From a virus: a DNA stretch of 64,000 bases. Positions 7,072 through 63,155 of the stretch are shown one piece after another. The position numbers were made by a program, and so were the translations under genes. Each line of letters starts with the position of its first letter. Position 1 is the first letter of the stretch. Location: the IMG/VR virus record IMGVR_UViG_3300030109_004085, positions 1-64,000 of that record; one strand, written 5' to 3'. The notes beneath the pieces are model-generated. The model did not search any database. It was not told where the DNA came from and saw only the letters and a program-made list of their open reading frames with translations.

Positions 7072-7746
7072 TTATCTTCTTCGCTTGGGGGGGACATCCA
7101 CGCTCATTAGAGCATCTAATGCGTCGCGTTCTGGGGTGCCGGGAGTAGCAGCACGACCGACAGGAACATTTCTAGCTGGACGACTGTCAGCGTCGGACTT
7201 GGCTCTATCAAACATATCCTTACCTAAGTCCATAGTCTTCTTCTCAACGTATGTTAGAAGTGACTCAAGGTTTTCTGTGTTTGATCTTCCTTTAACTTCC
7301 AAAGCGGCGTCTTGAGAATTCTTAAACATTCCAATCCACTCTTCCACCCTGTCCATAAGCATAGGATTTGGCTTATTCATCTTTGTTTCGCCTGGGAACA
7401 TGAAACCAAACAAACTATCCAGAAGGTTACCCTCATCGTCCTCTTGTCTTAAACTAAAGATCAACTCTCGATTTGTGACATCTGGATATAGAATATCTAC
7501 GAGGCTCTCGGCGCGGCGACGATCTTCCTTGGTGGCTTTCGAGCCGCGCATGGCACGATCTCGGAGTTTATCGCGCATAGCTCGGACGTCAACTTTCTTG
7601 GTTTCTGCCCCGGCGGCAGCGCGTTTCATCGCCTCTCTTTCACCCGGCTCAAGCATACGCGTTGTTCCCGGGTCTTCCTGCTCCGCAAGAATATTATGCA
7701 GTTCCTCTGTGATGATTCGCTTAAGCTTCGACTTCGTTATTTTCAT
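7072..7746 (-). CDS. putative internal head protein with MKITKxxLxxIIxEE leader
   Basis: N-terminus MKITKSKLKRIITEELHNILAE; late motif upstream. Confidence 0.55.
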   Translation of the reverse strand: MKITKSKLKRIITEELHNILAEQEDPGTTRMLEPGEREAMKRAAAGAETKKVDVRAMRDKLRDRAMRGSKATKEDRRRAESLVDILYPDVTNRELIFSLRQEDDEGNLLDSLFGFMFPGETKMNKPNPMLMDRVEEWIGMFKNSQDAALEVKGRSNTENLESLLTYVEKKTMDLGKDMFDRAKSDADSRPARNVPVGRAATPGTPERDALDALMSVDVPPKRRR

Positions 7747-8098
7747 TGGGTTTTTCCTCTTCAGTAATTAGTCCATATCTCTCTTGTTCGCCGTCGTCAT
7801 ATGTAATAATCGTGCGATTGCCGGGATGCGGCTTGATATGAACAGTGATGAAATCGTTCATCGAATCAAAAATAGCAATAGAACCCTTCGGTCGAGGATA
7901 TAACCAGTGTGCGATACACTGACCCGTTGCTAGTACAACGCCTTCAATAACTACTCCTTCACCCGACACTCCCGATTCGTCCGCTTGCCGCGCAACCGTG
8001 AATGTCTGAATGCCGCGGGGACATAGACGAGAGGGTTTCTTAGGTATTAACTCCTCAGCGGGAGTTTGTTCTTCTTCAGTGGTAGTTTCATCGCTCAT
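7721..8098 (-). CDS. conserved phage hypothetical protein
   Basis: DESGVSG.G.V.EGV motif. Confidence 0.6.
   Translation of the reverse strand: MSDETTTEEEQTPAEELIPKKPSRLCPRGIQTFTVARQADESGVSGEGVVIEGVVLATGQCIAHWLYPRPKGSIAIFDSMNDFITVHIKPHPGNRTIITYDDGEQERYGLITEEEKPNENNEVEA
7765..7772 (-). promoter_or_regulatory. putative late promoter ACTAATTA
   Basis: Member of recurrent (A)CTAHTTA motif. Confidence 0.5.
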
Positions 8099-8471
8099 TT
8101 TTTAAAATCCAATCGAATGCTTCTATCAAATTTGGAGTCGTCTGATAATCCTCTATACTATCTCTAGTGACCCACTCAAAATCGTCATGCTCAACACCAA
8201 TCCGTACGGTGCCGCTATGGTGGCCACAATAATATATGTCAACGACTTCATTACTAAATTCTTTTAGACAAACTAGATCAGATATATCAATATCCAAATC
8301 AGTCTCTTCTTTCGTCTCTCTAATCACGGCGCCCGGAGAATTTTCTCCGGAGTCGATTCTGCCTCCGGGTAAGCCCCACTTTCCGGGCATCCACCAAGCT
8401 TTTGTCGTCCTTTTTAAGATTAGAACTCGATCTTGCTCGTCCAGAATTAAGACTGCTGCGTTTCCTTTCAT
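8088..8471 (-). CDS. NUDIX hydrolase
   Basis: PGGRIDSGE....AVIRETKEETDL Nudix box. Confidence 0.9.
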   Translation of the reverse strand: MKGNAAVLILDEQDRVLILKRTTKAWWMPGKWGLPGGRIDSGENSPGAVIRETKEETDLDIDISDLVCLKEFSNEVVDIYYCGHHSGTVRIGVEHDDFEWVTRDSIEDYQTTPNLIEAFDWILKNER

Positions 8472-8494
8472 GTTTTTCCTGATCCTTATTTTAA

Positions 8495-10513
8495 TTACTG
8501 ATCTAAACTAAGAGCCTGATCGTATGCTTTGATATACACATCGTGTAGTTTCTGAATAGCATTGGATCTTCGCAGCATCTTAAACGCGAGATTCTCGGGA
8601 GAGAAGATGCCAGCTTTTTCCAATCCTGTTTGTCGCATTGTTTTGATCTTCTCTTTCAGACTAGCCGCAGCCTCAAGTGCTGCATTGTGATCTCCATCAT
8701 ACAGGATGGATGCCACCTTGTCAACCCCTCTTTCAATATCAGCTGCTTTTTTCCGAGCGGTTTTCTTGTCAATGAAGGGCTTCACTTTGTTTGGCTTCAC
8801 GAGCCACTTATCGTTCATTAAAGAATATACGCCCGTTGAAACATGTGGCTCGCTTTCGTCCTGAACATAAAGCTCAACCTCGTGTCCCTTGACTTTTATA
8901 TCGTGGGTTCTGTTCCAGTTGGCACGAACTGCGTCAAAGAAACGCTTAACCAACTCTTCATTCTCGTTAACTTCTTTGAAGTCTATCAGGATATGTAAAT
9001 CAATGTCAGAAAACTTTGACCAGTTATAGTTCGCTAAAGACCCTGTAAGGATAATATCTTTAATCTCGGCGTCTAAATCTAAACGCTCAACGAATTCATC
9101 AACAATATCCATCAAAGCAGCTTTAACCCCAGGTCGGATTCTCTCTTCACCGTCCCAGATTTTTTGCTGGAACTCTGGCTGCATCTCAAATGTTGCTAGA
9201 TCCTCTTCATTGCCTACGGAAATTAGAATATCCTCGCGTAAACGGTCAAAGCGGCTGAGATCTTTGTTGGTGTATCGTGGCTTGCGTTTTTGCTTTGTAA
9301 CCTGTACATACTTGTCGGCGCCTTGCAGGGATGCGGTGGTGTCTTTTGAATCCTTTTTATAAATCTTTGTAAGATGACGCTTGTTCTTGACATAATCTTT
9401 CATTGATTCTTTTGATTCTAGGTCGCTAACTGGTATAAAACCAGCCTCAGCCATATGGCGCGCAAGGTTATCTATGTCTGTTACACCAGCTTCATAAGCG
9501 TCGTACCAATCATCAATTGAGGAGTCTGCTTCTTTCTTTTCAACATCATCTCGGCTATCGTGGTAATACTTCCATACTGCCGCAGCATCGTCGGAGACAC
9601 TGTTATCATCTGCTTTTAGTCCTCTGCTGCTCTCTGACGCTATCTCTAGTGCCACATCATACAGCAAAGGTCCGAAGCCATCTCTGGCCTTTACAGTAGC
9701 AACTTTATAGGTTCCCTTGAACGGATCTCCGGAAGAACGGTGTGCCTCCAGCACGCCGTATACGTCGATACCAGCCTCCATACGATCTAAATCGTCCGCA
9801 ACCAAAGGAGCGTTAGGATTGTCCTTCATCGCGTAATACACCTTGTATTTCATTGGCATCTGCTGAAGATCAACGGCAACCACAACCCCTTCGGGTAGGT
9901 CGGCGGCAGTCTTCATCGCTTCGTCAAGGATAGCCTCTTCTAACCCACCGACGGCGCCGGGTGGTGCTGATTCAAAGTCAGGCGAGTCACTTACGTTTTT
10001 GTATCCACCCTTTCTCTGAGGTCCTTTGGAAGTAAGATCTTTGAAATCCTTTTTCAAATCTGACTTATGTTTTGCAGACTGATAATAATCACCCTCCGAT
10101 ACATTCTGGACTCTCTTGGTGTATGAACCGGGACCGTAGAAAGCTTTTCTTCTTTGTTTAGGTTTGCGTTCCTTGTATCTCAAGACCGAAACACCCTTGA
10201 GTCTAGCGATGAGCTTTACAACTCGCTTCATCATTAGTTCTTTGGACGTGTCTCGTGGACGACGGACGTGAACTTTGAGCGTGGAAAGATAAGTGTTGCC
10301 TAAATCTTTCTGAACACCTCCCTTTTCTCTCTCAATGAGAGTAACAGTCAGAACCTCTGGAAGGGCGCGGATGTCGTTTTTAGTCTCGTCGCGGGAGCCG
10401 CCACGATTCTTGTCCATTGATATCAGAACAGTAAAGTTAAACGTGTCCTGAAAGTATGCAGGATCTTTAGCTTCCTCTAGGAAGTCTTTAAAGGTTTGAA
10501 GTTCGCGTTTCAT
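8495..10513 (-). CDS. multidomain protein: small N-domain + GNAT-like domain + Pol-beta-family nucleotidyltransferase
   Basis: GFGPLLYD...SVSDDAAAVW (GNAT-like); TGSLANY...SDIDLH...VELY (GS, DxD, third acidic residue). Confidence 0.7.
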   Translation of the reverse strand: MKRELQTFKDFLEEAKDPAYFQDTFNFTVLISMDKNRGGSRDETKNDIRALPEVLTVTLIEREKGGVQKDLGNTYLSTLKVHVRRPRDTSKELMMKRVVKLIARLKGVSVLRYKERKPKQRRKAFYGPGSYTKRVQNVSEGDYYQSAKHKSDLKKDFKDLTSKGPQRKGGYKNVSDSPDFESAPPGAVGGLEEAILDEAMKTAADLPEGVVVAVDLQQMPMKYKVYYAMKDNPNAPLVADDLDRMEAGIDVYGVLEAHRSSGDPFKGTYKVATVKARDGFGPLLYDVALEIASESSRGLKADDNSVSDDAAAVWKYYHDSRDDVEKKEADSSIDDWYDAYEAGVTDIDNLARHMAEAGFIPVSDLESKESMKDYVKNKRHLTKIYKKDSKDTTASLQGADKYVQVTKQKRKPRYTNKDLSRFDRLREDILISVGNEEDLATFEMQPEFQQKIWDGEERIRPGVKAALMDIVDEFVERLDLDAEIKDIILTGSLANYNWSKFSDIDLHILIDFKEVNENEELVKRFFDAVRANWNRTHDIKVKGHEVELYVQDESEPHVSTGVYSLMNDKWLVKPNKVKPFIDKKTARKKAADIERGVDKVASILYDGDHNAALEAAASLKEKIKTMRQTGLEKAGIFSPENLAFKMLRRSNAIQKLHDVYIKAYDQALSLDQ

Positions 10514-11251
10514 CTATATAAATAGTTCGCCGTACTCAATAAGTGCGCGTGTTTCTTCCGGACATAGAACTTGATACCAGTGAGAACCTACAACAGATTC
10601 TAAACGCTGTGCGAGAGGCCAATCATTTCCGCCGGGTATGTTCTTATCCCCAACAAAAATCATCTCAACATCATCGCCGTGCAGCTCTCTTAGTTTTTCC
10701 ACCACTTGTCCTTTATTTTTGCCTTTTGGATAGATATCTACCGAGATCGAACCGCCAATTGAAACCTCTAGTTCTGGGTATGTTTCGCCAATATATGCGA
10801 CAATGTCTTCTCGTTCAAGTGTCCTCTTATCCCATCGCTCATAAGCCTCTCTCATATTCTTGTTGGCATTTCTTCCAACTGTAGAGAAATTAATCATACC
10901 GGGTCTTTTTTCAATATGATTACCTTTCTTAGAAAGCCATTGAGAGTTGTCTAAGTATAACTCTAAGTCTGAAATAAATTCTTCACTAGGACTGAAGACA
11001 TTGCTATAAACAATCTGTCCTTCCTGTCTAAACACATTCCCCGAGCACGTAAATACACCTAGACAAGAACGTATAAGATCTTCGCCTAGTTGCTCTCGTG
11101 TCTTTGAGATGTCCGAGCCTGTGACCAAATATACTTTCTTGCCACCGGTGACCCATGACATAAACACATCTTCAATTTCTGTCTTGATTTTTTGGCGGGG
11201 CTCAGTTAACGTCCCATCAACATCAAATAGGTATATTCTTTCAGGCATCAC
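10514..11251 (-). CDS. HAD-IIB phosphomannomutase (eukaryote-type PMM/Sec53 family)
   Basis: FDVDGTLT.PR, E.R.GMINFS..GR, SIGG.IS.D..P.G..K, FVGDK...GGND. Confidence 0.85.
   Translation of the reverse strand: MMPERIYLFDVDGTLTEPRQKIKTEIEDVFMSWVTGGKKVYLVTGSDISKTREQLGEDLIRSCLGVFTCSGNVFRQEGQIVYSNVFSPSEEFISDLELYLDNSQWLSKKGNHIEKRPGMINFSTVGRNANKNMREAYERWDKRTLEREDIVAYIGETYPELEVSIGGSISVDIYPKGKNKGQVVEKLRELHGDDVEMIFVGDKNIPGGNDWPLAQRLESVVGSHWYQVLCPEETRALIEYGELFI
10519..10526 (-). promoter_or_regulatory. putative late promoter ACTATTTA (leaderless)
   Basis: Motif 5 nt before ATG of the 672-aa gene. Confidence 0.6.
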
Positions 11252-11724: not shown

Positions 11725-12762
11725 TTAACTACCGGCTGAATCGTCATCATCACCGGCGCTGTCGTCATCATCACCGGCATCATGATCAATAACATATCCA
11801 ATTTCCACTAATGCACCCTCGTAAGGCACCACCAGGAATTCAATGCTGTTTGTAGCAGCGTTATACACCCAGTCTGTGTCAGCCATCGGCACAGTATCTT
11901 CAAAAACAATCAACGTATCCTCAATAGGTGTGTAGGTCAGCGGCCACTCTTCGTAGGGGTCGACCTGTGAGGATGCAGCGGCTACACCGGGGGACCAATC
12001 TTCTTCGCAAATGTCAACCACCACACCACTGAATGCGTCTGTGGCGTCCATGTATCTGTCTCCCACAAAAGTAGCAGATACCCCTCCGTCGCAAATAGTG
12101 TCTGCTGGGTCAACGTTTACAATGCTCGCCATGAAGACAGATTGTCTTTGGTTACCGTACCACTGAATAAACTCTTGAAGACCGGCGTTGGTTGAAGTGA
12201 ATTGGGAACTACTTTGTTCATCTTCATCGCTAACAAATACTACCAACAGGGCGGCATCATTGCGTAGCCACGTTTGGTTGTAAGAGTTGAGAGCAACATA
12301 ACTGTGTAGCGCGTCGAAGCCTGCCTCTCGATAAGACGGGAGTCCGATGAGGGTGTTATAGGCTGCCTCAGCATCAGCCACCGTATCTCCCGGAACCAAT
12401 GGGAATATGGCTTGCTGTTGTGCCTGCATGTAGTCAGTTGTAGTAATCCCCAAACGCCAACCTACTGCCGGTAGGGCACTCATCATCTGACCAATACCAT
12501 CGATTACTGCTTGATTAAACGTATTCATTGAGCCCGATTGGTCAATAAGCCAAATAATGTCGACGCCATCAACTGTGAAAGGTTGTTCAAACGAATCAAC
12601 CCAAACATCGCCACCCTCTCCTGGAATGTCAATGTAAACAGTTTCTCCCGGGATTTCAACGTAGACTGTTTCACCTGGATTCTGCGAGTAGATTGTGTAA
12701 TCTCCTTCGCATCCGAAAACCGTCAAACAAACAAGAAATACTAGTGCAAATCTACTAAGCAT
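11725..12762 (-). CDS. vWA-domain lipoprotein with C-terminal GDDDDSA repeats
   Basis: Lipobox VFGC; MIDAS DIIWLIDQSGSM; VFVSDEDEQS; tail GDDDDSAGDDDDSAGS. Confidence 0.75.
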   Translation of the reverse strand: MLSRFALVFLVCLTVFGCEGDYTIYSQNPGETVYVEIPGETVYIDIPGEGGDVWVDSFEQPFTVDGVDIIWLIDQSGSMNTFNQAVIDGIGQMMSALPAVGWRLGITTTDYMQAQQQAIFPLVPGDTVADAEAAYNTLIGLPSYREAGFDALHSYVALNSYNQTWLRNDAALLVVFVSDEDEQSSSQFTSTNAGLQEFIQWYGNQRQSVFMASIVNVDPADTICDGGVSATFVGDRYMDATDAFSGVVVDICEEDWSPGVAAASSQVDPYEEWPLTYTPIEDTLIVFEDTVPMADTDWVYNAATNSIEFLVVPYEGALVEIGYVIDHDAGDDDDSAGDDDDSAGS

Positions 12763-12764
12763 TT

Positions 12765-13601
12765 TTAATCCCTCAACCCACCTCTTCTCGGAGCAGCAGC
12801 GCCAGGAATAGATTTCATCTCCCGCACTGGAACATCAGAGGATAGAATTCTTACTTTTAATAACTCAAGATCAATTTGACTAATGGGGGCAATCCAAACA
12901 ATCTCCTCCAGCGGGATACGACCGCCGCCGCCGAAGCGCCCAACGTCAATTCCCGACACACAGCCAAGATATCTGCCTGACTGGTCAAATACTCCGGAGC
13001 CAGATGAGCCGAACCACCCGAACATGTTGGATACAATCATGCTGTGCTCTAGGGCTGCTACATATCCTCGGATTGTCAGAAGGTCGTGATGTGATGGAAA
13101 GCCAGTATAAGTTAAGTTTTTTCCAACGAGTCTCTCGTCGTATTTTAATTCTGGTCGGTAACGAATGGCTGTTCTGGTTTCAATCTCAGGAACAACCATA
13201 AAAGCAATGTCAACCCTGTGGTCTGCAAAGATAACCTTGCCTATGACCACTTCACCATCTCGGCCCTCTATGAGCATAGTACTCTCGTTCCGGACAACGT
13301 GAGCAGCCGTTGCGACGATGCGGCGGCCATAGGCGACCATGTAAGTACCAGAGCCATGACCACCCTGTAAAAGCGAACGGACTTTTACAGCTGCCTGTCT
13401 GGTTCTTTTTTCTGTTAATGTAAGGTTAAGGGCGTCAATGACTTCCAGAACTCGTCCGATAGAGTTCCGTACTTCAACTGTACGCTGTGTTTGAATAATA
13501 TCCGGATTTAAGTTTGAGTTAGAATTTGGTAAGACCGGTCCAGTACAACTTACCAAAAGTAAAGAAGCTATTATTATAAAGTTTTTAATCCACCTAGACA
13601 C
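12765..13601 (-). CDS. trypsin-like serine protease lipoprotein
   Basis: Lipobox LVSC; TAAHV (His), DIA (Asp), GSSGSG (Ser). Confidence 0.8.
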   Translation of the reverse strand: MSRWIKNFIIIASLLLVSCTGPVLPNSNSNLNPDIIQTQRTVEVRNSIGRVLEVIDALNLTLTEKRTRQAAVKVRSLLQGGHGSGTYMVAYGRRIVATAAHVVRNESTMLIEGRDGEVVIGKVIFADHRVDIAFMVVPEIETRTAIRYRPELKYDERLVGKNLTYTGFPSHHDLLTIRGYVAALEHSMIVSNMFGWFGSSGSGVFDQSGRYLGCVSGIDVGRFGGGGRIPLEEIVWIAPISQIDLELLKVRILSSDVPVREMKSIPGAAAPRRGGLRD

Positions 13602-13770: not shown

Positions 13771-15411
13771 TTATTTTATAATTTTTGCCCAGGAGCCAAA
13801 AACCTTGGACTCTTGGAAGGGAAGAGTTTGTTGCCCTGCCTCTTCTTCTTGGTCGCGCTTCATCTGGCGATCCTCTTCGCCGGCAATGTCTCGATACACG
13901 CCGAGTGCCTCTAATCTCTCCTGAACACCTTCCCAGAAACCGTTGTAATCAAAATCTGCTTCTTCGGGCGCAGCTGTCGTGCTTATCAGATATTCGGAGA
14001 CATCTTGCATTTCGTCTAGATAGTTGTTTAGGCGAGCTAGCTCTTCCGCCACATCCTCTGGTTCGTCTGGATCATCTGGTTCAAAACTATCTACCCACTC
14101 CATTTCAATACGGAGCATCGCGGCTTGCGAATCTTGTACGCCGCGCGGAAACACATCAACGCTGACAATGTTGGGGTTGGGAGTGAGGGTGTCGTAGCCA
14201 ATCCTCTGCGCATCCTGGCGAATCTCGTAACGCAAACGAGTGGTCTCTTCCTGTACAATAATATCTTTCACAGGCCAGAACGCTTGGTGCTTCACAAGGA
14301 AGCTCACTGCGAGGGATCCCATTGAGGGCCAGTCCACTTCCTGGCTTGTCTGGGAGTCGGACTCAAAGCCGGGAGCATACTGTTCTAACAGTTCATTGGC
14401 TTCTGTAATCCATGAGTCCTCAAACTTGATATCGGGGTGCTTCTGTTTAAGATATTCCAGCATCTCTATAAAACCGACGCTGTCAGAACTATGCGTTCCG
14501 TCCTCGTCAAACTTCTCTACGCCCGCGTTCTCAAGGAACCAATCAATGTAGGGCCACAAATCTTCGGTAGGAGCTTTGTTAGCTTTGCCTTTAACTTGAT
14601 ATACAACACCGTCAGCAAATTCCAGAGTAACCATTGGTTTAATGCTGCGGCGCTTCTCTCCGCTGCGGAGGGAGTAGAGCATCCCCTGGTCGGCGCGACC
14701 ACAATGTCCCATCTTCTTGCCTTCAAAATCACAAGCTCTGCTGCGGATATCATACCAGAAGTAGCCATTATCAAAGGTGTGAATAACTTGATCTTCTGCT
14801 TTGGCCGGACTAGTCAAAACATCTCGGGCTATCTCACTTGCAGTGCGGAGGAAGCGTTCCTGGTTCGTACCAATCCCCTGGCGTAGTTCGTCGTAGAAAG
14901 CTGGATCTTCTGCCAGCAGCGTCATAATGGGAACAATGTATCCCTGGAGCGCGCGAACGCCCTGAGTCGCTCTATATTCTAAAAACGAATCTAATTGCTT
15001 AATCAGCATGTCGGGAGCACCGCGCTTTTTCAGCATCTTTCGGGCGCTCTTTCTAAGAGATTTAAGATCCGCCAGTCCAGGGGCTCCCCGTACGCCGGAA
15101 TGGTTGATATACCACTCGCTAAAGAATTTGACGGTATTGCTCCAGGCTTCTTCTGCTTCGGGGGTATCGGGCCACCGGTCACGTCCAATTATTTCTTCAA
15201 TGATAGTCTTGTGGACGCTGGGGCTGTAGAAGTTCCTACTCTTAACCGCTTTTACAAGAGTGCCAATCCAAGTCAGATGTTTGTTGCTGACCGGACCGTA
15301 CTCATTGTTCATCTGCCTTAAGATAAACGCAACTTCAGAGGGGAGGCCAATATCCTCGACCCCTTCTTGAAGTAGATAATCTTTCCATTTGTTAGTTTGA
15401 CGCAAATACAT
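13771..15411 (-). CDS. putative virion cargo protein with PcfJ-like domain
   Basis: EGKKMGHC...LYSLR...VTLE...QVKGKAN..P; late motif 6 nt before ATG. Confidence 0.55.
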   Translation of the reverse strand: MYLRQTNKWKDYLLQEGVEDIGLPSEVAFILRQMNNEYGPVSNKHLTWIGTLVKAVKSRNFYSPSVHKTIIEEIIGRDRWPDTPEAEEAWSNTVKFFSEWYINHSGVRGAPGLADLKSLRKSARKMLKKRGAPDMLIKQLDSFLEYRATQGVRALQGYIVPIMTLLAEDPAFYDELRQGIGTNQERFLRTASEIARDVLTSPAKAEDQVIHTFDNGYFWYDIRSRACDFEGKKMGHCGRADQGMLYSLRSGEKRRSIKPMVTLEFADGVVYQVKGKANKAPTEDLWPYIDWFLENAGVEKFDEDGTHSSDSVGFIEMLEYLKQKHPDIKFEDSWITEANELLEQYAPGFESDSQTSQEVDWPSMGSLAVSFLVKHQAFWPVKDIIVQEETTRLRYEIRQDAQRIGYDTLTPNPNIVSVDVFPRGVQDSQAAMLRIEMEWVDSFEPDDPDEPEDVAEELARLNNYLDEMQDVSEYLISTTAAPEEADFDYNGFWEGVQERLEALGVYRDIAGEEDRQMKRDQEEEAGQQTLPFQESKVFGSWAKIIK

Positions 15412-15417
15412 CAACTA

Positions 15418-32619: not shown

Positions 32620-32853
32620 TTATAGAATGTTTTTTAGCGCTTCCTCAAGGAATGCGCGGAGAACATTTATATCTACATTTTGCTGGGCATCACTGATGGC
32701 ACTGTCAAGTATCTCAAGAGTTCCGATTTCTGCTTCGTTTCTGCCGTATCTTTCGCCGGCAGTTCGCATATCGGGCTCTTCCTCTTCGGATACAGCACCA
32801 AGCCCCAACTCTTCCTTAATAATCTCTTGTAATCTTGCTTTTGTGATTTTCAT
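32620..32853 (-). CDS. putative internal head protein with MKITK leader
   Basis: MKITKARLQEIIKEEL...AVSEE. Confidence 0.6.
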   Translation of the reverse strand: MKITKARLQEIIKEELGLGAVSEEEEPDMRTAGERYGRNEAEIGTLEILDSAISDAQQNVDINVLRAFLEEALKNIL

Positions 32854-32865
32854 TTTATGCCCCTA

Positions 32866-33174
32866 CTATAGATTAGCTATATATTCATCAAAGAACTTAT
32901 CACCCATGCTTCGAACGGAGGCAAAATCGGCGCCCATGGCACCTTGTTTTCCGAGAGCTTGATAAATCTTCTTGCCGGAATACTTGGTCGCCTCTACATA
33001 GTCATCGTATGGGATACTGTTTGGATCGAGGCCGCGGGCGGCAAGGTACTCATCGTATTCACGCATCTCGTCGCGGTCGACAAGAGGAAGTTCCGTCTGT
33101 CCTTCAAGTTCCTCGGACACAGCTGCAATCTCTTCCTTAATAATCTCTCTTAGTTTTGCTTTTGTAATTCTCAT
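32866..33174 (-). CDS. putative internal head protein with MRITK leader
   Basis: MRITKAKLREIIKEEI.AVSEE; start at 33174 after AGGAG and ACTATTTA (33204-33211). Confidence 0.6.
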   Translation of the reverse strand: MRITKAKLREIIKEEIAAVSEELEGQTELPLVDRDEMREYDEYLAARGLDPNSIPYDDYVEATKYSGKKIYQALGKQGAMGADFASVRSMGDKFFDEYIANL

Positions 33175-41902: not shown

Positions 41903-42769
41903 TCAGCTAATATCCTGATCGTCTAAAAGTTTGTTAATATATTGTACCACAGAGGAATACCGAATGCAATAACAATATTTCTGCTCGTAACTCGTTCTGA
42001 ACACACCATACGATACATTCTTCCCCGTGTCAAGCCGAGACTTGACAAAGTTGTTGATTTTTCTGAACAGAGTGCCGTCATTCTTCAGGTCGTCCTCTCC
42101 AATACCATAGTAGTATACCACGTCCTTCGTGTTTGTCAAGGGATAAAACCACTTTTCCTTATACTGAGTGTAGTCATCGCCCTCCAGTGTTACTGCGCCT
42201 ATGGTGCAGATACGCGATAATTCAGACGGAGTGATAAAATTACCAATTACAGGTTCTGAATGTCTAAACACATTAGTCATATGAATAATATTTACGATTG
42301 CTTGGTTCAGAGTGTCATAATAACCAATAATCGACATATCACCAATGCTTCGCTCAATGTAAGCGTTATTAACCATAATAATTTGCTCCAACATACCCGA
42401 ACGAGCATATTCCTGCAACACAGAGGATACAATTTTCTCTTGCTTCTTCTGAACCTCGGACATAATCGAGAGGTCGCCCTCAATATACAAAACAGTCAGT
42501 CTGTTCTTTTGAAGTTGCTCCAACAGTCGTAGTGAGCCGCCAGAAATCTTACCTGCGCCAGCAATAACAACCAATACATCCTCATCTTTAAACTTTAGCT
42601 TCCTCTTAAGATCCGGGAATGAACTATCGTACTCTTCGTGGTTCTTTTTAGCTTTAATTGTGATATCAGCGTCTGGGTTGGCATCGATACCATAAGTTTG
42701 GTATTGCGGAAACTTTGAGAAAGCCTTCGCTATGTTGCAACCAGCCTTGCCAAGGCCAACCACGATCAT
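41903..42769 (-). CDS. divergent tubulin/FtsZ-family protein
   Basis: VVGLGKAGCNIA (T1 loop), GID, AGAGKISG (degenerate GGGTGSG), V.N, Y..LN..I; ATGA overlap gives start 42769. Confidence 0.6.
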   Translation of the reverse strand: MIVVGLGKAGCNIAKAFSKFPQYQTYGIDANPDADITIKAKKNHEEYDSSFPDLKRKLKFKDEDVLVVIAGAGKISGGSLRLLEQLQKNRLTVLYIEGDLSIMSEVQKKQEKIVSSVLQEYARSGMLEQIIMVNNAYIERSIGDMSIIGYYDTLNQAIVNIIHMTNVFRHSEPVIGNFITPSELSRICTIGAVTLEGDDYTQYKEKWFYPLTNTKDVVYYYGIGEDDLKNDGTLFRKINNFVKSRLDTGKNVSYGVFRTSYEQKYCYCIRYSSVVQYINKLLDDQDIS

Positions 42770-43080
42770 TCCTGAACCCACTCCAGAAAATATCCCATAT
42801 CAAAACCACCGCGCTCAATTCGCTTGACAGTAGTAGCCGTCATAATCTGAGAATCTCGGATGCCTTCGCGCTCGCAAATAAAATGAAGAATTTCCATGAT
42901 ATCGGCTGCTTCTTCGGCACAAGGGTTCTCGATAAATTCCGTCACTTCCTCTTGAAGCTTCTTGAGAGCCGCGGACGTAAGAGCTTCACCTTCAAGAATT
43001 GTGGTTTGGTGAACTTTGCCCGCTTCTTCAATAATCTCTGGAATTCGATCTCGGACAAGCTTGTGATGTAGTGTTTTCAT
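42766..43080 (-). CDS. MazG-like nucleoside triphosphate pyrophosphohydrolase
   Basis: KLVRDRIPEII, KL.EE..EF, EE.AD..E, KR..RGGF. Confidence 0.8.
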   Translation of the reverse strand: MKTLHHKLVRDRIPEIIEEAGKVHQTTILEGEALTSAALKKLQEEVTEFIENPCAEEAADIMEILHFICEREGIRDSQIMTATTVKRIERGGFDMGYFLEWVQE

Positions 43081-60290: not shown

Positions 60291-62027
60291 TTAGCCTTCG
60301 AGACCTCGGCAGATGACCAAGCCGTACATATCTGGACGGACCATCTTCTTGGCGTAACGGGTCATAACACCCTTGCGAGGTACGAAGTCCTCTACACCGA
60401 AGATAGTAGGTGTGGTCTGTAGTGGCACATAAGGTGCGTATACATAACCGCTCTCAAGGAAACTACTTCCGCGTCGACCCACAAGGATCAAGTTACGTGG
60501 GAAGTATGGATCGACCATAACGTCGAACTTCTTGGAGAGAGCGCCAACCTTAACGGCACCAATATCACCACGATCAGCATCAGCAGTCACGTTAGCACGG
60601 AAACCAGCTGTGAACTCAAGGATGTTAGCAATCTCTGGGGATGTAACCACAAAGTTTGCAGCACCACGGAGTGTCTTTCTGTGGATCTGTGCGGAGACGT
60701 CGTTGATTGTCTCAACAAGTGTCTCGTACCACTCACTGACGTTACCGGTGAAGTCCTGCGTAACGCTAGAAACAGCACCTGTCTCGCGATCGAGGAACTG
60801 ACCTGGGTGACGCGACCAGTAGCGAGTGCCACCGGTGGACAACTTGATAAGGTCCTCAAGGATCTCACGATCGATCTCAAGGGCGATCTGCTCAGAAAGA
60901 ATCTGAGTAAGCTCGACCTCGGCATCAAGGTTGTGGTAAGCGTTGAGATCCTGTCCCAACTCTGGAGTCCACTTAGCCTTGAGCTTCTTAGTGACAGCTG
61001 TGACGGCCACTGAGTCGACCTTGATGTCGATCTCTGGAATTGCTTCCTGGTTCTCTAGACCCCACTCAGATGCACCTTCGACTGAACCAAGGGCACCACC
61101 AACAACAAAGTTATCAGCCAATGGAGCAGCGATGTGCTCGTGACCACCAACGATCGTTGAAAGCGCGGCAAGGTGAGCAGCAGTTGTTGAAGCAGTCGTA
61201 GAAGCGACTGTGACAAGAATCTTGCCCTCATCGACAAACGACTCTCTCTGGAGACGTCGAACCTGAATTGTGTTGACACCAAGCGACTGTGAAAGTGTAA
61301 GTGCAACAAGGTCTTCCAAGTTTACATCTGCAGCAACCAAAGTGGATCTTGGCATTGTAGCAACTACGAACTGTGAACCAGAAATTAGATCTGGGTCGAA
61401 GCGTAGAAGACGATCAGTCTCATAGCCAGCTGTTGGCGTGTTACCAGCGTAAATAGTAAAATCTGGAACACCACCAGCACCAACGTTACCCGAAGCGACT
61501 ACAGTAAAGGCCATACCAATTGAACCGGTTGGCGAAGAGTAGCCGTTGTTAAGGGCGTATGGTCCAGTCTCAGCGTTGGCGTTCGTTAGAAGAACACCAC
61601 CGGTGATCTGGGCACCAACTCGACCACCACCATAGAGGGACGTGTCAACGGCGTTGGCAAGGCGGTCGCCTGTCGTGTCGCTGAGTGTTCCACCAAAGGT
61701 GAAGTCAAGGAAGAAAATGAGACCCGATGGGAGACTCATTGGCTGAACGCTAACGAGATCGTTGGCGATCAAATTGCCGAATACTCGGCGTACTAGTGGG
61801 AATGCAACAGCTGCAAAACCCTCTACATCTCCAGCAGCCATGGCGCTGGACTCACGGAGAAGCTCTTTTGCTTGGTTTTCAAGCAAACGGGCCATACCGT
61901 TTCTCTGGGTATCATCGGAAATGCCCTCTAGAAGACCAGTCTGCTCCCACTTAGAAATAAGTGCGGCACCCTCGGTCGAGAGGTCACGATTGACAATACC
62001 TTCAGTCAATCTTTCTACAATAGACAT
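60291..62027 (-). CDS. major capsid protein (T4 gp23-like)
   Basis: KW...GLL, LLENQ, VQPM..P.GLIF, KLKAKWT.EL.QDL.A.H.LDAE.EL, YAPYVP, TRY. Confidence 0.95.
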   Translation of the reverse strand: MSIVERLTEGIVNRDLSTEGAALISKWEQTGLLEGISDDTQRNGMARLLENQAKELLRESSAMAAGDVEGFAAVAFPLVRRVFGNLIANDLVSVQPMSLPSGLIFFLDFTFGGTLSDTTGDRLANAVDTSLYGGGRVGAQITGGVLLTNANAETGPYALNNGYSSPTGSIGMAFTVVASGNVGAGGVPDFTIYAGNTPTAGYETDRLLRFDPDLISGSQFVVATMPRSTLVAADVNLEDLVALTLSQSLGVNTIQVRRLQRESFVDEGKILVTVASTTASTTAAHLAALSTIVGGHEHIAAPLADNFVVGGALGSVEGASEWGLENQEAIPEIDIKVDSVAVTAVTKKLKAKWTPELGQDLNAYHNLDAEVELTQILSEQIALEIDREILEDLIKLSTGGTRYWSRHPGQFLDRETGAVSSVTQDFTGNVSEWYETLVETINDVSAQIHRKTLRGAANFVVTSPEIANILEFTAGFRANVTADADRGDIGAVKVGALSKKFDVMVDPYFPRNLILVGRRGSSFLESGYVYAPYVPLQTTPTIFGVEDFVPRKGVMTRYAKKMVRPDMYGLVICRGLEG

Positions 62028-62053: not shown

Positions 62054-63112
62054 TTATTTATTCAAACCTGCTAAACGCAGCATACGACCCATAGATGGGT
62101 CCTTAGTTGCCTTGTTGTTTCTCTTAGAATTGATCAAAAGCGATGTAGGTCTTTGAACTGCTTCACGAAGTGTTTGTGGGCGTGTTCGGGGATCAGCCGA
62201 TGCCCCCACTGCGTTTTGAATTGTTTCAAAAATCATACTTGCTTCTTCAACAGAATTGGCAGATTGAACAGCTTCGACAATTTGTGTTTTTTGTCGCTCA
62301 TTCAGGGAGGCGCTGCCCAAAGCCTTGTTTTGATAAACAAGCTTGGCGTTATCAAGATTCAGCTTTGTAAGCTGATCCTTTGCTTCAACAATGAGAGCAC
62401 GAAGCTCTCTGTTAGATTCTGTAAGTTCGGAGATCTTTGTTTCGTGAAGTTCAACTGGCACAACGTCTGGTGCGGTATCTTCTTCAATCTCCTCTTCCTC
62501 TTCTTCCTCAAGGTGTGCTTCCTTAGCGGCTGCAATGGCATCATTGTTTGCCTGCAGCACGCTATTTTCAGCACCACCGAGCGAAGAGAAACCTGCTGGA
62601 GATGTGTCCATATCCAGGGTTAGTTCTTCTACTAATTCTTTAATAAAGTCTTCGGACAAGTTAAGGTCCTCGTCTTCTTCTAGTGGCTCGACGGGGGTGG
62701 CGCCTAGCTCGGCGGCATCCTCTTCGGCATCGCGGTCTGCCATTTTATCTAGCGGATCGCCTTCTGCTATTTCGTCAGCCATTTCTAAAGCGTCGTTGAG
62801 GGTATCTTCCTCTACAACTTCATCTTCCTCTTCTAGGCGTGTCTTCAACGCATCAAAGTCGATTTCAACGATTTCGTCTTCTGGGGCTTCGTCTAGCTCT
62901 TCGTTCTGAAAAGCATAGGGAACATCCTCCGTGAACTGTGTTTGAGTCTCATCCACTTCACCCTCTTCTAAATCTTCCTGTTCTAGTAAAGTATCTAATG
63001 CTTTCTTAACTTCGCCAGAATACTTTTCCAATACAACATTCTCAGCATTCTTCAATGCTGCTTCCTTAAGGGCTTTGGCGTCTACGATCGCCTCTTCTAA
63101 TAGTGAAGACAT
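62054..63112 (-). CDS. prohead scaffold/core protein
   Basis: Acidic coiled-coil, many LxE, directly upstream of capsid gene, ends RMLRLAGL; start MSSLLEE. Confidence 0.75.
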   Translation of the reverse strand: MSSLLEEAIVDAKALKEAALKNAENVVLEKYSGEVKKALDTLLEQEDLEEGEVDETQTQFTEDVPYAFQNEELDEAPEDEIVEIDFDALKTRLEEEDEVVEEDTLNDALEMADEIAEGDPLDKMADRDAEEDAAELGATPVEPLEEDEDLNLSEDFIKELVEELTLDMDTSPAGFSSLGGAENSVLQANNDAIAAAKEAHLEEEEEEEIEEDTAPDVVPVELHETKISELTESNRELRALIVEAKDQLTKLNLDNAKLVYQNKALGSASLNERQKTQIVEAVQSANSVEEASMIFETIQNAVGASADPRTRPQTLREAVQRPTSLLINSKRNNKATKDPSMGRMLRLAGLNK

Positions 63113-63147: not shown

Positions 63148-63155
63148 TAAATAGT
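63148..63155 (-). promoter_or_regulatory. putative late promoter ACTATTTA for scaffold-capsid operon
   Basis: Recurrent motif. Confidence 0.65.

Follow-up and report, generated by a model that had tools for sequence, protein, structure and literature searches.

A leader-tagged three-module protein of a marine T4-like phage as a candidate capsid-targeted cargo polyprotein

The protein and its three modules

The analyzed stretch of DNA, hereafter the window, comprises 64,000 nucleotides, positions 1 to 64,000 of the IMG/VR virus record IMGVR_UViG_3300030109_004085; it is a part of that record, which is 83.9 kb long and estimated to be 46% complete. The virus is a T4-type myovirus that encodes a Gp23-family capsid protein, tail sheath and tube, DNA polymerase, ribonucleotide reductase, UvsX, and GroEL. 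The subject of this study is an open reading frame (ORF) on the minus strand at positions 8495..10513, stop codon included, for a leader-tagged three-module protein of 672 amino acids (76 kDa). The interpretation that we favor, holding its chances to be evenly balanced, is that of a cargo polyprotein of a marine T4-like myovirus, targeted to the capsid and processed by the head protease.

The ORF is genuine, and it belongs to a large, uncultured family of marine T4-like phages. Relatives are represented among contigs by complete genomes of 171-194 kb. Full-length homologues from marine metagenomes make up more than 100 clusters among the matches listed, with 54-96% identity and ~100% coverage, and these clusters are annotated at most as "predicted nucleotidyltransferase". 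A phmmer search of the whole protein against PDB sequences gave no match. In the AlphaFold2 model, built on a 36-sequence alignment, three folded units (approximately residues 20-115, 200-410, and 445-668) alternate with two stretches of low confidence (116-198 and 410-444). Thus, the first-pass annotation was right to divide the protein into three modules, and the model is not a single integrated fold. Polyvalent-type proteins combine at least two unrelated effector domains in one polypeptide, and here three unrelated modules are combined; neither Pfam nor PHROGs detected in the protein a zincin-like metallopeptidase (MPTase), MuF, or other hub or processing domain. Among the modules, the nucleotidyltransferase (NTase) alone occurs in cultured-phage relatives from GenBank, and tblastn with the N-terminal module (N-module) and with the middle module found no match in 50,697 GenBank phage records.

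The N-module (residues 15-140; 10094..10471, minus strand) combines a ferredoxin/ACT-like alpha-beta domain with a KERKPKQRRK stretch and ends in V-S-E140. It is the best-conserved part of the protein (83% mean identity), and its AlphaFold2 confidence, the predicted local distance difference test (pLDDT), is 80-87. The corresponding product has a computed mass of 14.6 kDa and a pI of 10.3. The top VIA-align match is the FDX anticodon-binding domain of PheRS-beta (Z 9.8, root-mean-square deviation [rmsd] 3.6, 92 aligned residues); further PheRS-beta FDX domains match with Z 8.7, 8.3, and 7.5, and RelA and other ACT domains with Z 7.4-8.0. A protein atlas search with the N-module returned sub-threshold rows only. 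In all 15 of the 15 loci, the N-module is either in one polypeptide with this NTase or encoded beside it.

The middle module (residues 194-427; 9233..9934, minus strand) begins with the entry motif AILDE|AMKTAADLPE. Two motifs noticed in it at the outset were located at residues 279-286 (GFGPLLYD; nt 9656-9679) and 307-314 (SDDAAAVW). Folded alone with 69 distant relatives, the module reached a pLDDT of 87 and a predicted template modeling score of 0.84. In VIA-align, the 50 best-ranked rows consist entirely of acyl-CoA N-acyltransferase folds (Z 5.5-7.2); the best is Elp3 (Z 7.2, rmsd 3.2, 104 aligned residues), and NatD, YjdJ, Tip60, TacT3, and AtaT are also among them. The original assignment of this module to GNAT enzymes thus stands at the level of the fold and does not stand at the level of the sequence family: no Pfam GNAT family matches at E up to 1, the sole PDB profile match is a GNAT with E 1.4, and Foldseek gives nothing below E 0.2, though GNATs recur in its list. 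PF00583 is found on 13% of members in one atlas cluster of relatives. The segment R-D-G-F-G-P lies between predicted beta4 (269-276) and alpha3 (281-293), and its G-x-G is invariant. The invariant GFGP appears to occupy the position of the GNAT pyrophosphate-binding loop (motif A, Q/R-x-x-G-x-G/A), a putative site for coenzyme A. The safe designation is therefore a divergent "GNAT fold", which does not imply acetyl transfer.

Relatives of the middle module constitute a widespread stand-alone phage protein of ~200 amino acids with the start MK.L..YIR..LL.E|A.K...DLP; the counterpart of its invariant Glu in the query is E198. The module is confined almost wholly to phages. Prokaryotic copies were found at 11 loci in ~185,000 genomes, all in metagenome-assembled genomes, and are too few to compare this Glu outside T4-type phages; the sole apparent chromosomal copy (locus L099) is connected to bacterial genes through a run of Ns. 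Arrays of GNAT-like paralogues are also observed, with five leader-bearing copies within ~12 kb in each of the loci L010 and L027.

The C-terminal module (residues 428-672; 8498..9232, minus strand), entered via ...RFDRLRE|D, consists of a Pol-beta NTase and a C-terminal helical domain. It is recognized by Pfam NTP_transf_2 (PF01909; 23.9 bits at a cut-off of 21) and matches phrog_36119 with E 8.5e-46; its stand-alone relatives number more than 3000. The Pol-beta motifs are intact, as had been reported: GS...DID lies at residues 491-505 (nt 8999-9043), followed by E545/E547. G491-S492, D503, D505, E545, and E547 are invariant, so that both the hG[GS]...D-h-[DE] signature and the third carboxylate of Pol-beta enzymes are present. 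The best profile match to a solved structure is the AMPylation domain of DrrA, a marginal one (E 0.008-0.05) over the GSLA...SD.D core. Foldseek matches are NTases with a helical C-domain, namely CdnE, ANT(9), AadA, and LinB; the matches to CD-NTases and aminoglycoside NTases have E-values of 1.6e-4 to 1e-2 and a high rmsd over the multidomain model.

Such matches raise the question of a bifunctional small-molecule enzyme, nucleotidylating and acetylating like ANT and AAC, which would shield the phage or the host against an antibiotic-like compound. In agreement with it are the Foldseek matches to ANT(9), AadA, ANT(6), and LinB, the aminoglycoside acetyltransferases among the GNAT-fold matches, and the annotation of one cyanophage homologue as an aminoglycoside nucleotidyltransferase. 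However, these matches do not go beyond the fold and come together with CD-NTases and protein AMPylases, and sequence-family membership is lacking: a PDB profile search gave no sequence match of the NTase to the CD-NTase or the aminoglycoside/lincosamide NTase families. A small-molecule enzyme would also leave unexplained the leader, the junction sites, and the variants with an M23 peptidase described below, and we regard it as very improbable.

Leader, junction sites, and head protease

The protein starts with a 14-residue leader, MKRELQTFKDFLEE (10472..10513, minus strand), with predicted cleavage after E14, that is similar to the capsid-targeting sequence (CTS) of T4 proteins. In the T4 CTS, targeting depends on residues 4 and 7 and processing on residues 8 and 10, and the T4 head protease gp21 cleaves after L/I-X-E (PMC9026906). 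Counted back from the Glu, F8/F11/L12/E14 in MKRELQTFKDFLEE|A correspond to T4 CTS positions 4/7/8/10, their counterparts in the T4 internal protein IPIII being Y4, F7, I8, and E10. The stretch FKDFLEE, first noticed as a T4-CTS-like start, is residues 8-14 and stands in this register, in which positions -6 and -3 are hydrophobic, position -2 is L or I, and the cut follows Glu. In the family alignment, F8, F11, and E14 are invariant and position 12 is L, I, or M. As read from NC_000866, T4 IPII and IPIII begin with MKTYQEFIAE|A, and IPI begins with MKTFKEF...ITE|A.

Leaders were identified by register. This test replaced a pattern demanding A/G/S after the Glu, under which the MKITK leader family was overlooked and the N-terminus of an unrelated MazG-like ORF was accepted; this ORF (104 amino acids, window positions 42766-43080) has an N-terminus (…LVRDRIPEIIEE|AG) that fits the loose pattern by chance. 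Of the 94 N-termini in this genome, 4 show the 14-residue register of the query, where 0.18 would be expected (P = 3e-5); the other N-termini in this register are the MKITK..L..II.E family. Similar leaders are seen elsewhere on stand-alone GNAT-like proteins (MK.L..YIR..LL.E|A) and on many stand-alone NTases.

Four further ORFs have a 14-residue leader of the form MK(I)T/S...L..II.E in the register of the query (7072-7746, 32620-32853, 32866-33174, and G000:C1:71498-71941). The last of these adjoins the gene of the S77 protease described below and ends in ...GVAAEE, comparable to the ...GGAAEE of stand-alone N-modules. A leader-like start with a two-residue offset, ...NKWKDYLLQE|GVEDIGLP, is present in a 547-residue ORF at 13771-15414, which has CTA[TAC]TTA 13 nt upstream and whose 808-residue relative stands before a GNAT-like gene in L099. 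In Synechococcus phage S-B68 (L081, 2729-3598), the start MKNFNSFLTE|A has the length and register of the T4 IPIII leader; it belongs to an HxGH (cytidylyltransferase-type) enzyme encoded two genes upstream of a stand-alone NTase.

The gene for a gp21-type Peptidase_S77 prohead protease (PF03420, E 1.7e-31) lies in the same genome outside the window, at G000:C1:72029-72475. In the window, the ORF in the scaffold (gp22) position (62054-63112, minus strand) encodes 353 amino acids with 23 L/I-x-E sites. The Gp23-type capsid gene (60291-62027, minus strand; PF07068, E 3.9e-73) encodes a protein with ELLRE|SS ~65 residues in, just ahead of the conserved core, as in T4 gp23. Among 12 near-complete records with the GNAT-like module, 10 have both S77 and Gp23; the two records without them have YLTGGAK, or no leader, where others have L-x-E. 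S77 is also present in both near-complete genomes with N-module fusions. A trypsin-like protease encoded upstream was considered as the Glu-directed processing enzyme and rejected, because its lipoprotein signal peptide marks it as an exported lipoprotein. It is encoded together with a VWA-domain protein at window positions 11725-13601, both with lipoprotein signal peptides (...TVFGC, ...LLLVSC), and this exported pair is conserved upstream of the gene cassette described below in relatives.

Five [LIV]xE sites are found in the leader and linkers, with first residues 12, 138, 191, 196, and 425. The candidate cleavage sites proposed in the first-pass annotation were located at residues 137-141 (NVSE|G), 190-193 (GLEE), 194-199 (AILDE|A), and 424-428 (RLRE|D), and the conservation at module boundaries that it called for is observed: each of the five is retained by 94-100% of the 36 family members, and distant relatives have them as well. 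Between the N-module and the middle module lies a linker-tail element (residues 141-193; 9935..10093, minus strand) of low pLDDT, with one short helix, that ends in ...SAPPGAVGGLEE. Its G189, E192, and E193 are invariant in distant relatives, and GG.EE is invariant across diverse N-module proteins. Stand-alone N-module proteins terminate exactly at the end of this element (...GGLEE*, ...GGAAEE*, ...GGSEE*), and the stand-alone NTase P0343 ends in a tail resembling it. The counterpart of E198 is invariant in 69 stand-alone GNAT-like proteins with ~30% identity, and [LIV]xE directly precedes (D)YQ in 10 of 10 diverse N-module proteins.

A different explanation of these features is that the leader is a mere N-terminal helix and the LxE residues are structural, as would be expected of an uncut enzyme. 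We think this doubtful: N-termini are strongly enriched in the leader register, which unrelated proteins share, and the LxE sites are invariant despite lying in disordered linkers.

The relatives differ in the set and order of modules, the observed arrangements being N+NTase, N+M23+NTase, N+GNAT-like+NTase, and NTase+GNAT-like. The M23 peptidase that takes the middle slot has intact HxxxD and HxH motifs, and a peptidoglycan peptidase in this position would be sensible for an ejected protein. The loci L094-L096 have a separate N-module gene, whose product ends with ...GGSEE or ...PMGE, followed by the NTase gene. The GNAT-like module keeps its L-x-E-A-x-K...DLP entry in every position, including three tandem copies in a protein of 1370 amino acids. 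In P0129 (1367 amino acids), the GNAT-like module occurs together with canonical Pfam GNAT domains and an HNH domain. Fusions of the reverse order are provided by the L035 ORF at 7094 (430 amino acids) and the L077 ORF at 405, which consist of a leader, the NTase, ...SLQE|S..W..F.NE|A, and the GNAT-like module; such a fusion is an independent link between the NTase and the GNAT-like enzymes. As judged from the compared sequences, the junctions are points of evolutionary cut-and-paste.

The sites at the junctions may also be conserved and yet unused. In such a scenario, the protein is packaged, its leader is removed, and a three-module protein of ~75 kDa is ejected whole. This would follow T4 Alt and IPIII, which lose only terminal propeptides (PMC9026906), and an uncut protein would preserve the pairing of the N-module with the NTase. 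On the other hand, the internal sites, located in disordered linkers, equal the leader site in conservation, the modules are encoded as separate proteins in relatives, and head proteins of giant phages are cut at multiple redundant sites (PMC9026906). Removal of the leader alone is improbable in our estimate.

Upstream motif and neighboring genes

The promoter-like motif ACTATTTA (10519..10526, minus strand) is located directly upstream of the query ATG. It stands ahead of the homologous gene in every one of the 15 loci, L006 among them, where an upstream gene for a PMM-like protein is absent; in L093, L094, and L097, it lies in non-coding DNA preceding a ribosome-binding site. The whole genome has 19 copies of CTATTTA, all of them on the coding strand and mostly 24-51 nt before ORF starts (examples at 63154, 60232, 57959, 55048, and 10525); the copies at the scaffold-position, neck, sheath, and tube genes lie 34-43 nt upstream. 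The motif accompanies 3 of 5 leader ORFs and 12 of 89 other ORFs (p = 0.03). On its distribution, ACTATTTA appears to be a conserved regulatory element common to this gene and the virion genes, with a putative promoter role, and CTATTTA is a candidate late promoter distinct from the T4 TATAAATA. The latter was rejected as the late signal of this phage, having a single coding-strand occurrence. GTAATTA at 8492-8498, earlier taken for a variant late motif, turned out to be merely the stop codon in CAG TAA TTA, followed by the ribosome-binding site of the next gene. The RNA data consist of one oligo-dT run with two 151-nt contigs and are uninformative on timing or transcript ends.

This next gene, located 23 nt downstream, encodes the NUDIX hydrolase that had been noticed behind the query ORF (8088..8471, minus strand; Pfam NUDIX E 8e-17) and has its own ribosome-binding site. 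NUDIX follows the NTase in 11 of 15 loci and is absent in L003, L005, L093, and L097. One metagenomic contig (run X2) joins position 8080 to 8496 and skips exactly the NUDIX gene (8081-8495). Phage variants with and without NUDIX thus coexist, and NUDIX is a frequent but dispensable neighbor. In Maribacter phage Molly_1 (L080, 2804-3986), a NUDIX protein with an internal ...EAITEAAKG... element, behind which comes a small extra domain, is encoded two genes before a stand-alone NTase; the intervening ORF starts with MKTGKIKTLIES...ALTE, and the S77 match in Molly is only borderline (27.1 bits). In T4 (L082, 65416-67490 of NC_000866), ipII and ipIII stand beside e and the NUDIX gene nudE, a similar neighborhood that may be a coincidence.

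Upstream, a gene for a PMM-like HAD hydrolase or mutase (10514..11251, minus strand; Pfam PMM E 3.8e-28) has its stop codon abutting the query ATG; it is upstream in most relatives. Across distant loci, a recurrent cassette is formed by the PMM-like HAD protein, N/NTase, NUDIX, and a phrog_7499-like protein. The last of these, a 125-residue protein encoded at window positions 7721-8098, is the best-conserved neighbor, with 86-91% identity where the query has 71-90%, and its gene stands behind NUDIX or the NTase in most loci.

This neighborhood leads to the main alternative, an uncut cytoplasmic multidomain enzyme that would act with the PMM-like HAD protein and NUDIX on a nucleotide, nucleotide-sugar, or RNA substrate. 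Such an enzyme fits the conservation of the cassette over distant loci, the lack of leaders on the cassette neighbors, and the proximity of NTase and NUDIX in Maribacter phage Molly too; we rate it as possible but rather unlikely. In such an enzyme, the ACT-like N-module would regulate or target the NTase, as in GlnD or RelA, with the GNAT fold as a second activity; the ACT-type structural matches of the N-module and the fact that it is never found away from the NTase speak for this reading. Against an uncut enzyme, NUDIX and the PMM-like gene are each absent from some relatives, the M23 peptidoglycan peptidase, which has no cytoplasmic substrate, can fill the middle slot, and the promoter-like motif is common to virion genes.

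Proposed processing and its place among known systems

T4-type processing of the query is supported by four lines of evidence: the S77 protease in the same genome, the leader in the CTS register, the splitting and swapping of modules at the junctions, and the upstream motif shared with virion genes. In the proposed course of events, the protein would be synthesized late, from the ACTATTTA element common to virion genes, and its leader would direct loading into the prohead core. The S77 protease would then take the leader off after E14 and cut after E140, after E193 and/or E198, and after E427. The products released would be the basic 14.6-kDa protein, a short tail peptide, a 25.8-kDa GNAT-fold enzyme, and a 28.1-kDa NTase. 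These pieces may be ejected together with the DNA and modify targets in the host as soon as infection begins. For the NTase, the most likely activity would be transfer of a nucleoside monophosphate to a hydroxyl of protein or RNA, similar to AMPylases, with the N-module as its constant partner.

Several observations weigh against a head-processed cargo. The gene lies ~50 kb from the head genes, in a conserved PMM-like/NUDIX cassette without leaders, and looks metabolic; ACTATTTA is only 12 nt from the query ATG, compared to 24-51 nt elsewhere. LxE is a common tripeptide in acidic helices, any domain fusion has junctions that coincide with gene boundaries, and the NTase of the split-gene relatives has no leader of its own. 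The constant pairing of the N-module and the NTase could mean one uncut enzyme. The correlation between S77 and the Glu is based on just two negative genomes, the likeness to GNAT is middling and without a sequence-family match, and the match to DrrA is marginal. Packaging, cleavage, and ejection are all deduced from sequence and models.

If the query is nevertheless cut in the head, the family may be viewed more broadly as a modular kit in which a portable leader and LxE joints are combined and the head protease serves as a polyprotein processor, the N/NTase pair being a new injected nucleotidylating effector that acts on a host protein or tRNA; this extension is plausible, though we place it somewhat short of an even chance. 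In the same tentative spirit, the FDX/ACT-like module and the NTase would form a fixed pair, and the GNAT-fold or M23 modules would be exchangeable, all of them co-packaged, cut in the head, and injected.

The closest known counterparts are the T4 proteins IPI, IPII, IPIII, and Alt, which share with the query a short leader of the pattern described above, from the hydrophobic positions -6 and -3 and the L/I at -2 to the Glu of the cut site, in a genome that encodes a gp21-type S77 protease. The predicted small basic product is like the IPs, and the enzyme cargo resembles the case of Alt. Unlike them, the query has a leader of 14 residues rather than 10, and its putative cargo is made up of three modules, with junction sites between them, in place of one domain; its FDX/ACT-like, GNAT-fold, and Pol-beta NTase modules are unrelated to the IPs or Alt.

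Another comparison is with the polyvalent proteins of mobile elements (Iyer, Burroughs, Anand, de Souza, Aravind 2017; PMC5512222), for which delivery with DNA and proteolytic release of domains were proposed. The query likewise carries several unrelated effector-type domains in one mobile-element polypeptide, and among its relatives are proteins with as many as three GNAT-like copies or with additional domains of the canonical GNAT and HNH types. The premise of the first-pass annotation that polyvalent phage proteins fuse GNAT and NTase domains is correct insofar as both classes are listed in that study, and loose insofar as the Pol-beta NTase family there is the minimal version, found in conjugative elements only; the polyvalent GNATs are RimI-like and detectable by sequence (PMC5512222). 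In contrast to polyvalent proteins, the query has no MPTase/MuF hub and would depend on the head protease acting in trans at LxE.

In the phiKZ-like giant phages, a gp21 relative cleaves many of the proteins inside the head at short motifs, on the C-terminal side of Glu, and the sites are redundant (PMC9026906). The inner-body and ejection proteins of these phages, which have gp175-type proteases, differ from the query in the motif (S/A-x-E, compared to L/I-x-E here); the phages are not T4-type, and their head proteins are not known as multi-enzyme polyproteins with the module set of the query. Finally, DrrA/GlnE-type adenylyltransferases and minimal NTases share the Pol-beta fold and the GSxA...SDxD active site with the NTase module. 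Here, the match is marginal and covers the catalytic core only, and the C-terminal helical domain of the query with its conserved ENLAFKxLRR motif has no counterpart in the DrrA/GlnE type.

The family is large, and its stand-alone GNAT-like and NTase relatives, numbering hundreds to thousands, are nearly all annotated as hypothetical. The analysis provides concrete candidate cleavage sites and a defined set of candidate enzymes for host takeover or anti-defense in the first minute of infection. If the proposed processing is true, the query would be a natural polyprotein example for engineered T4 heads as protein carriers, and the CTS together with gp21 would be a general modular delivery platform of abundant ocean phages, not a quirk of a few T-even internal proteins.

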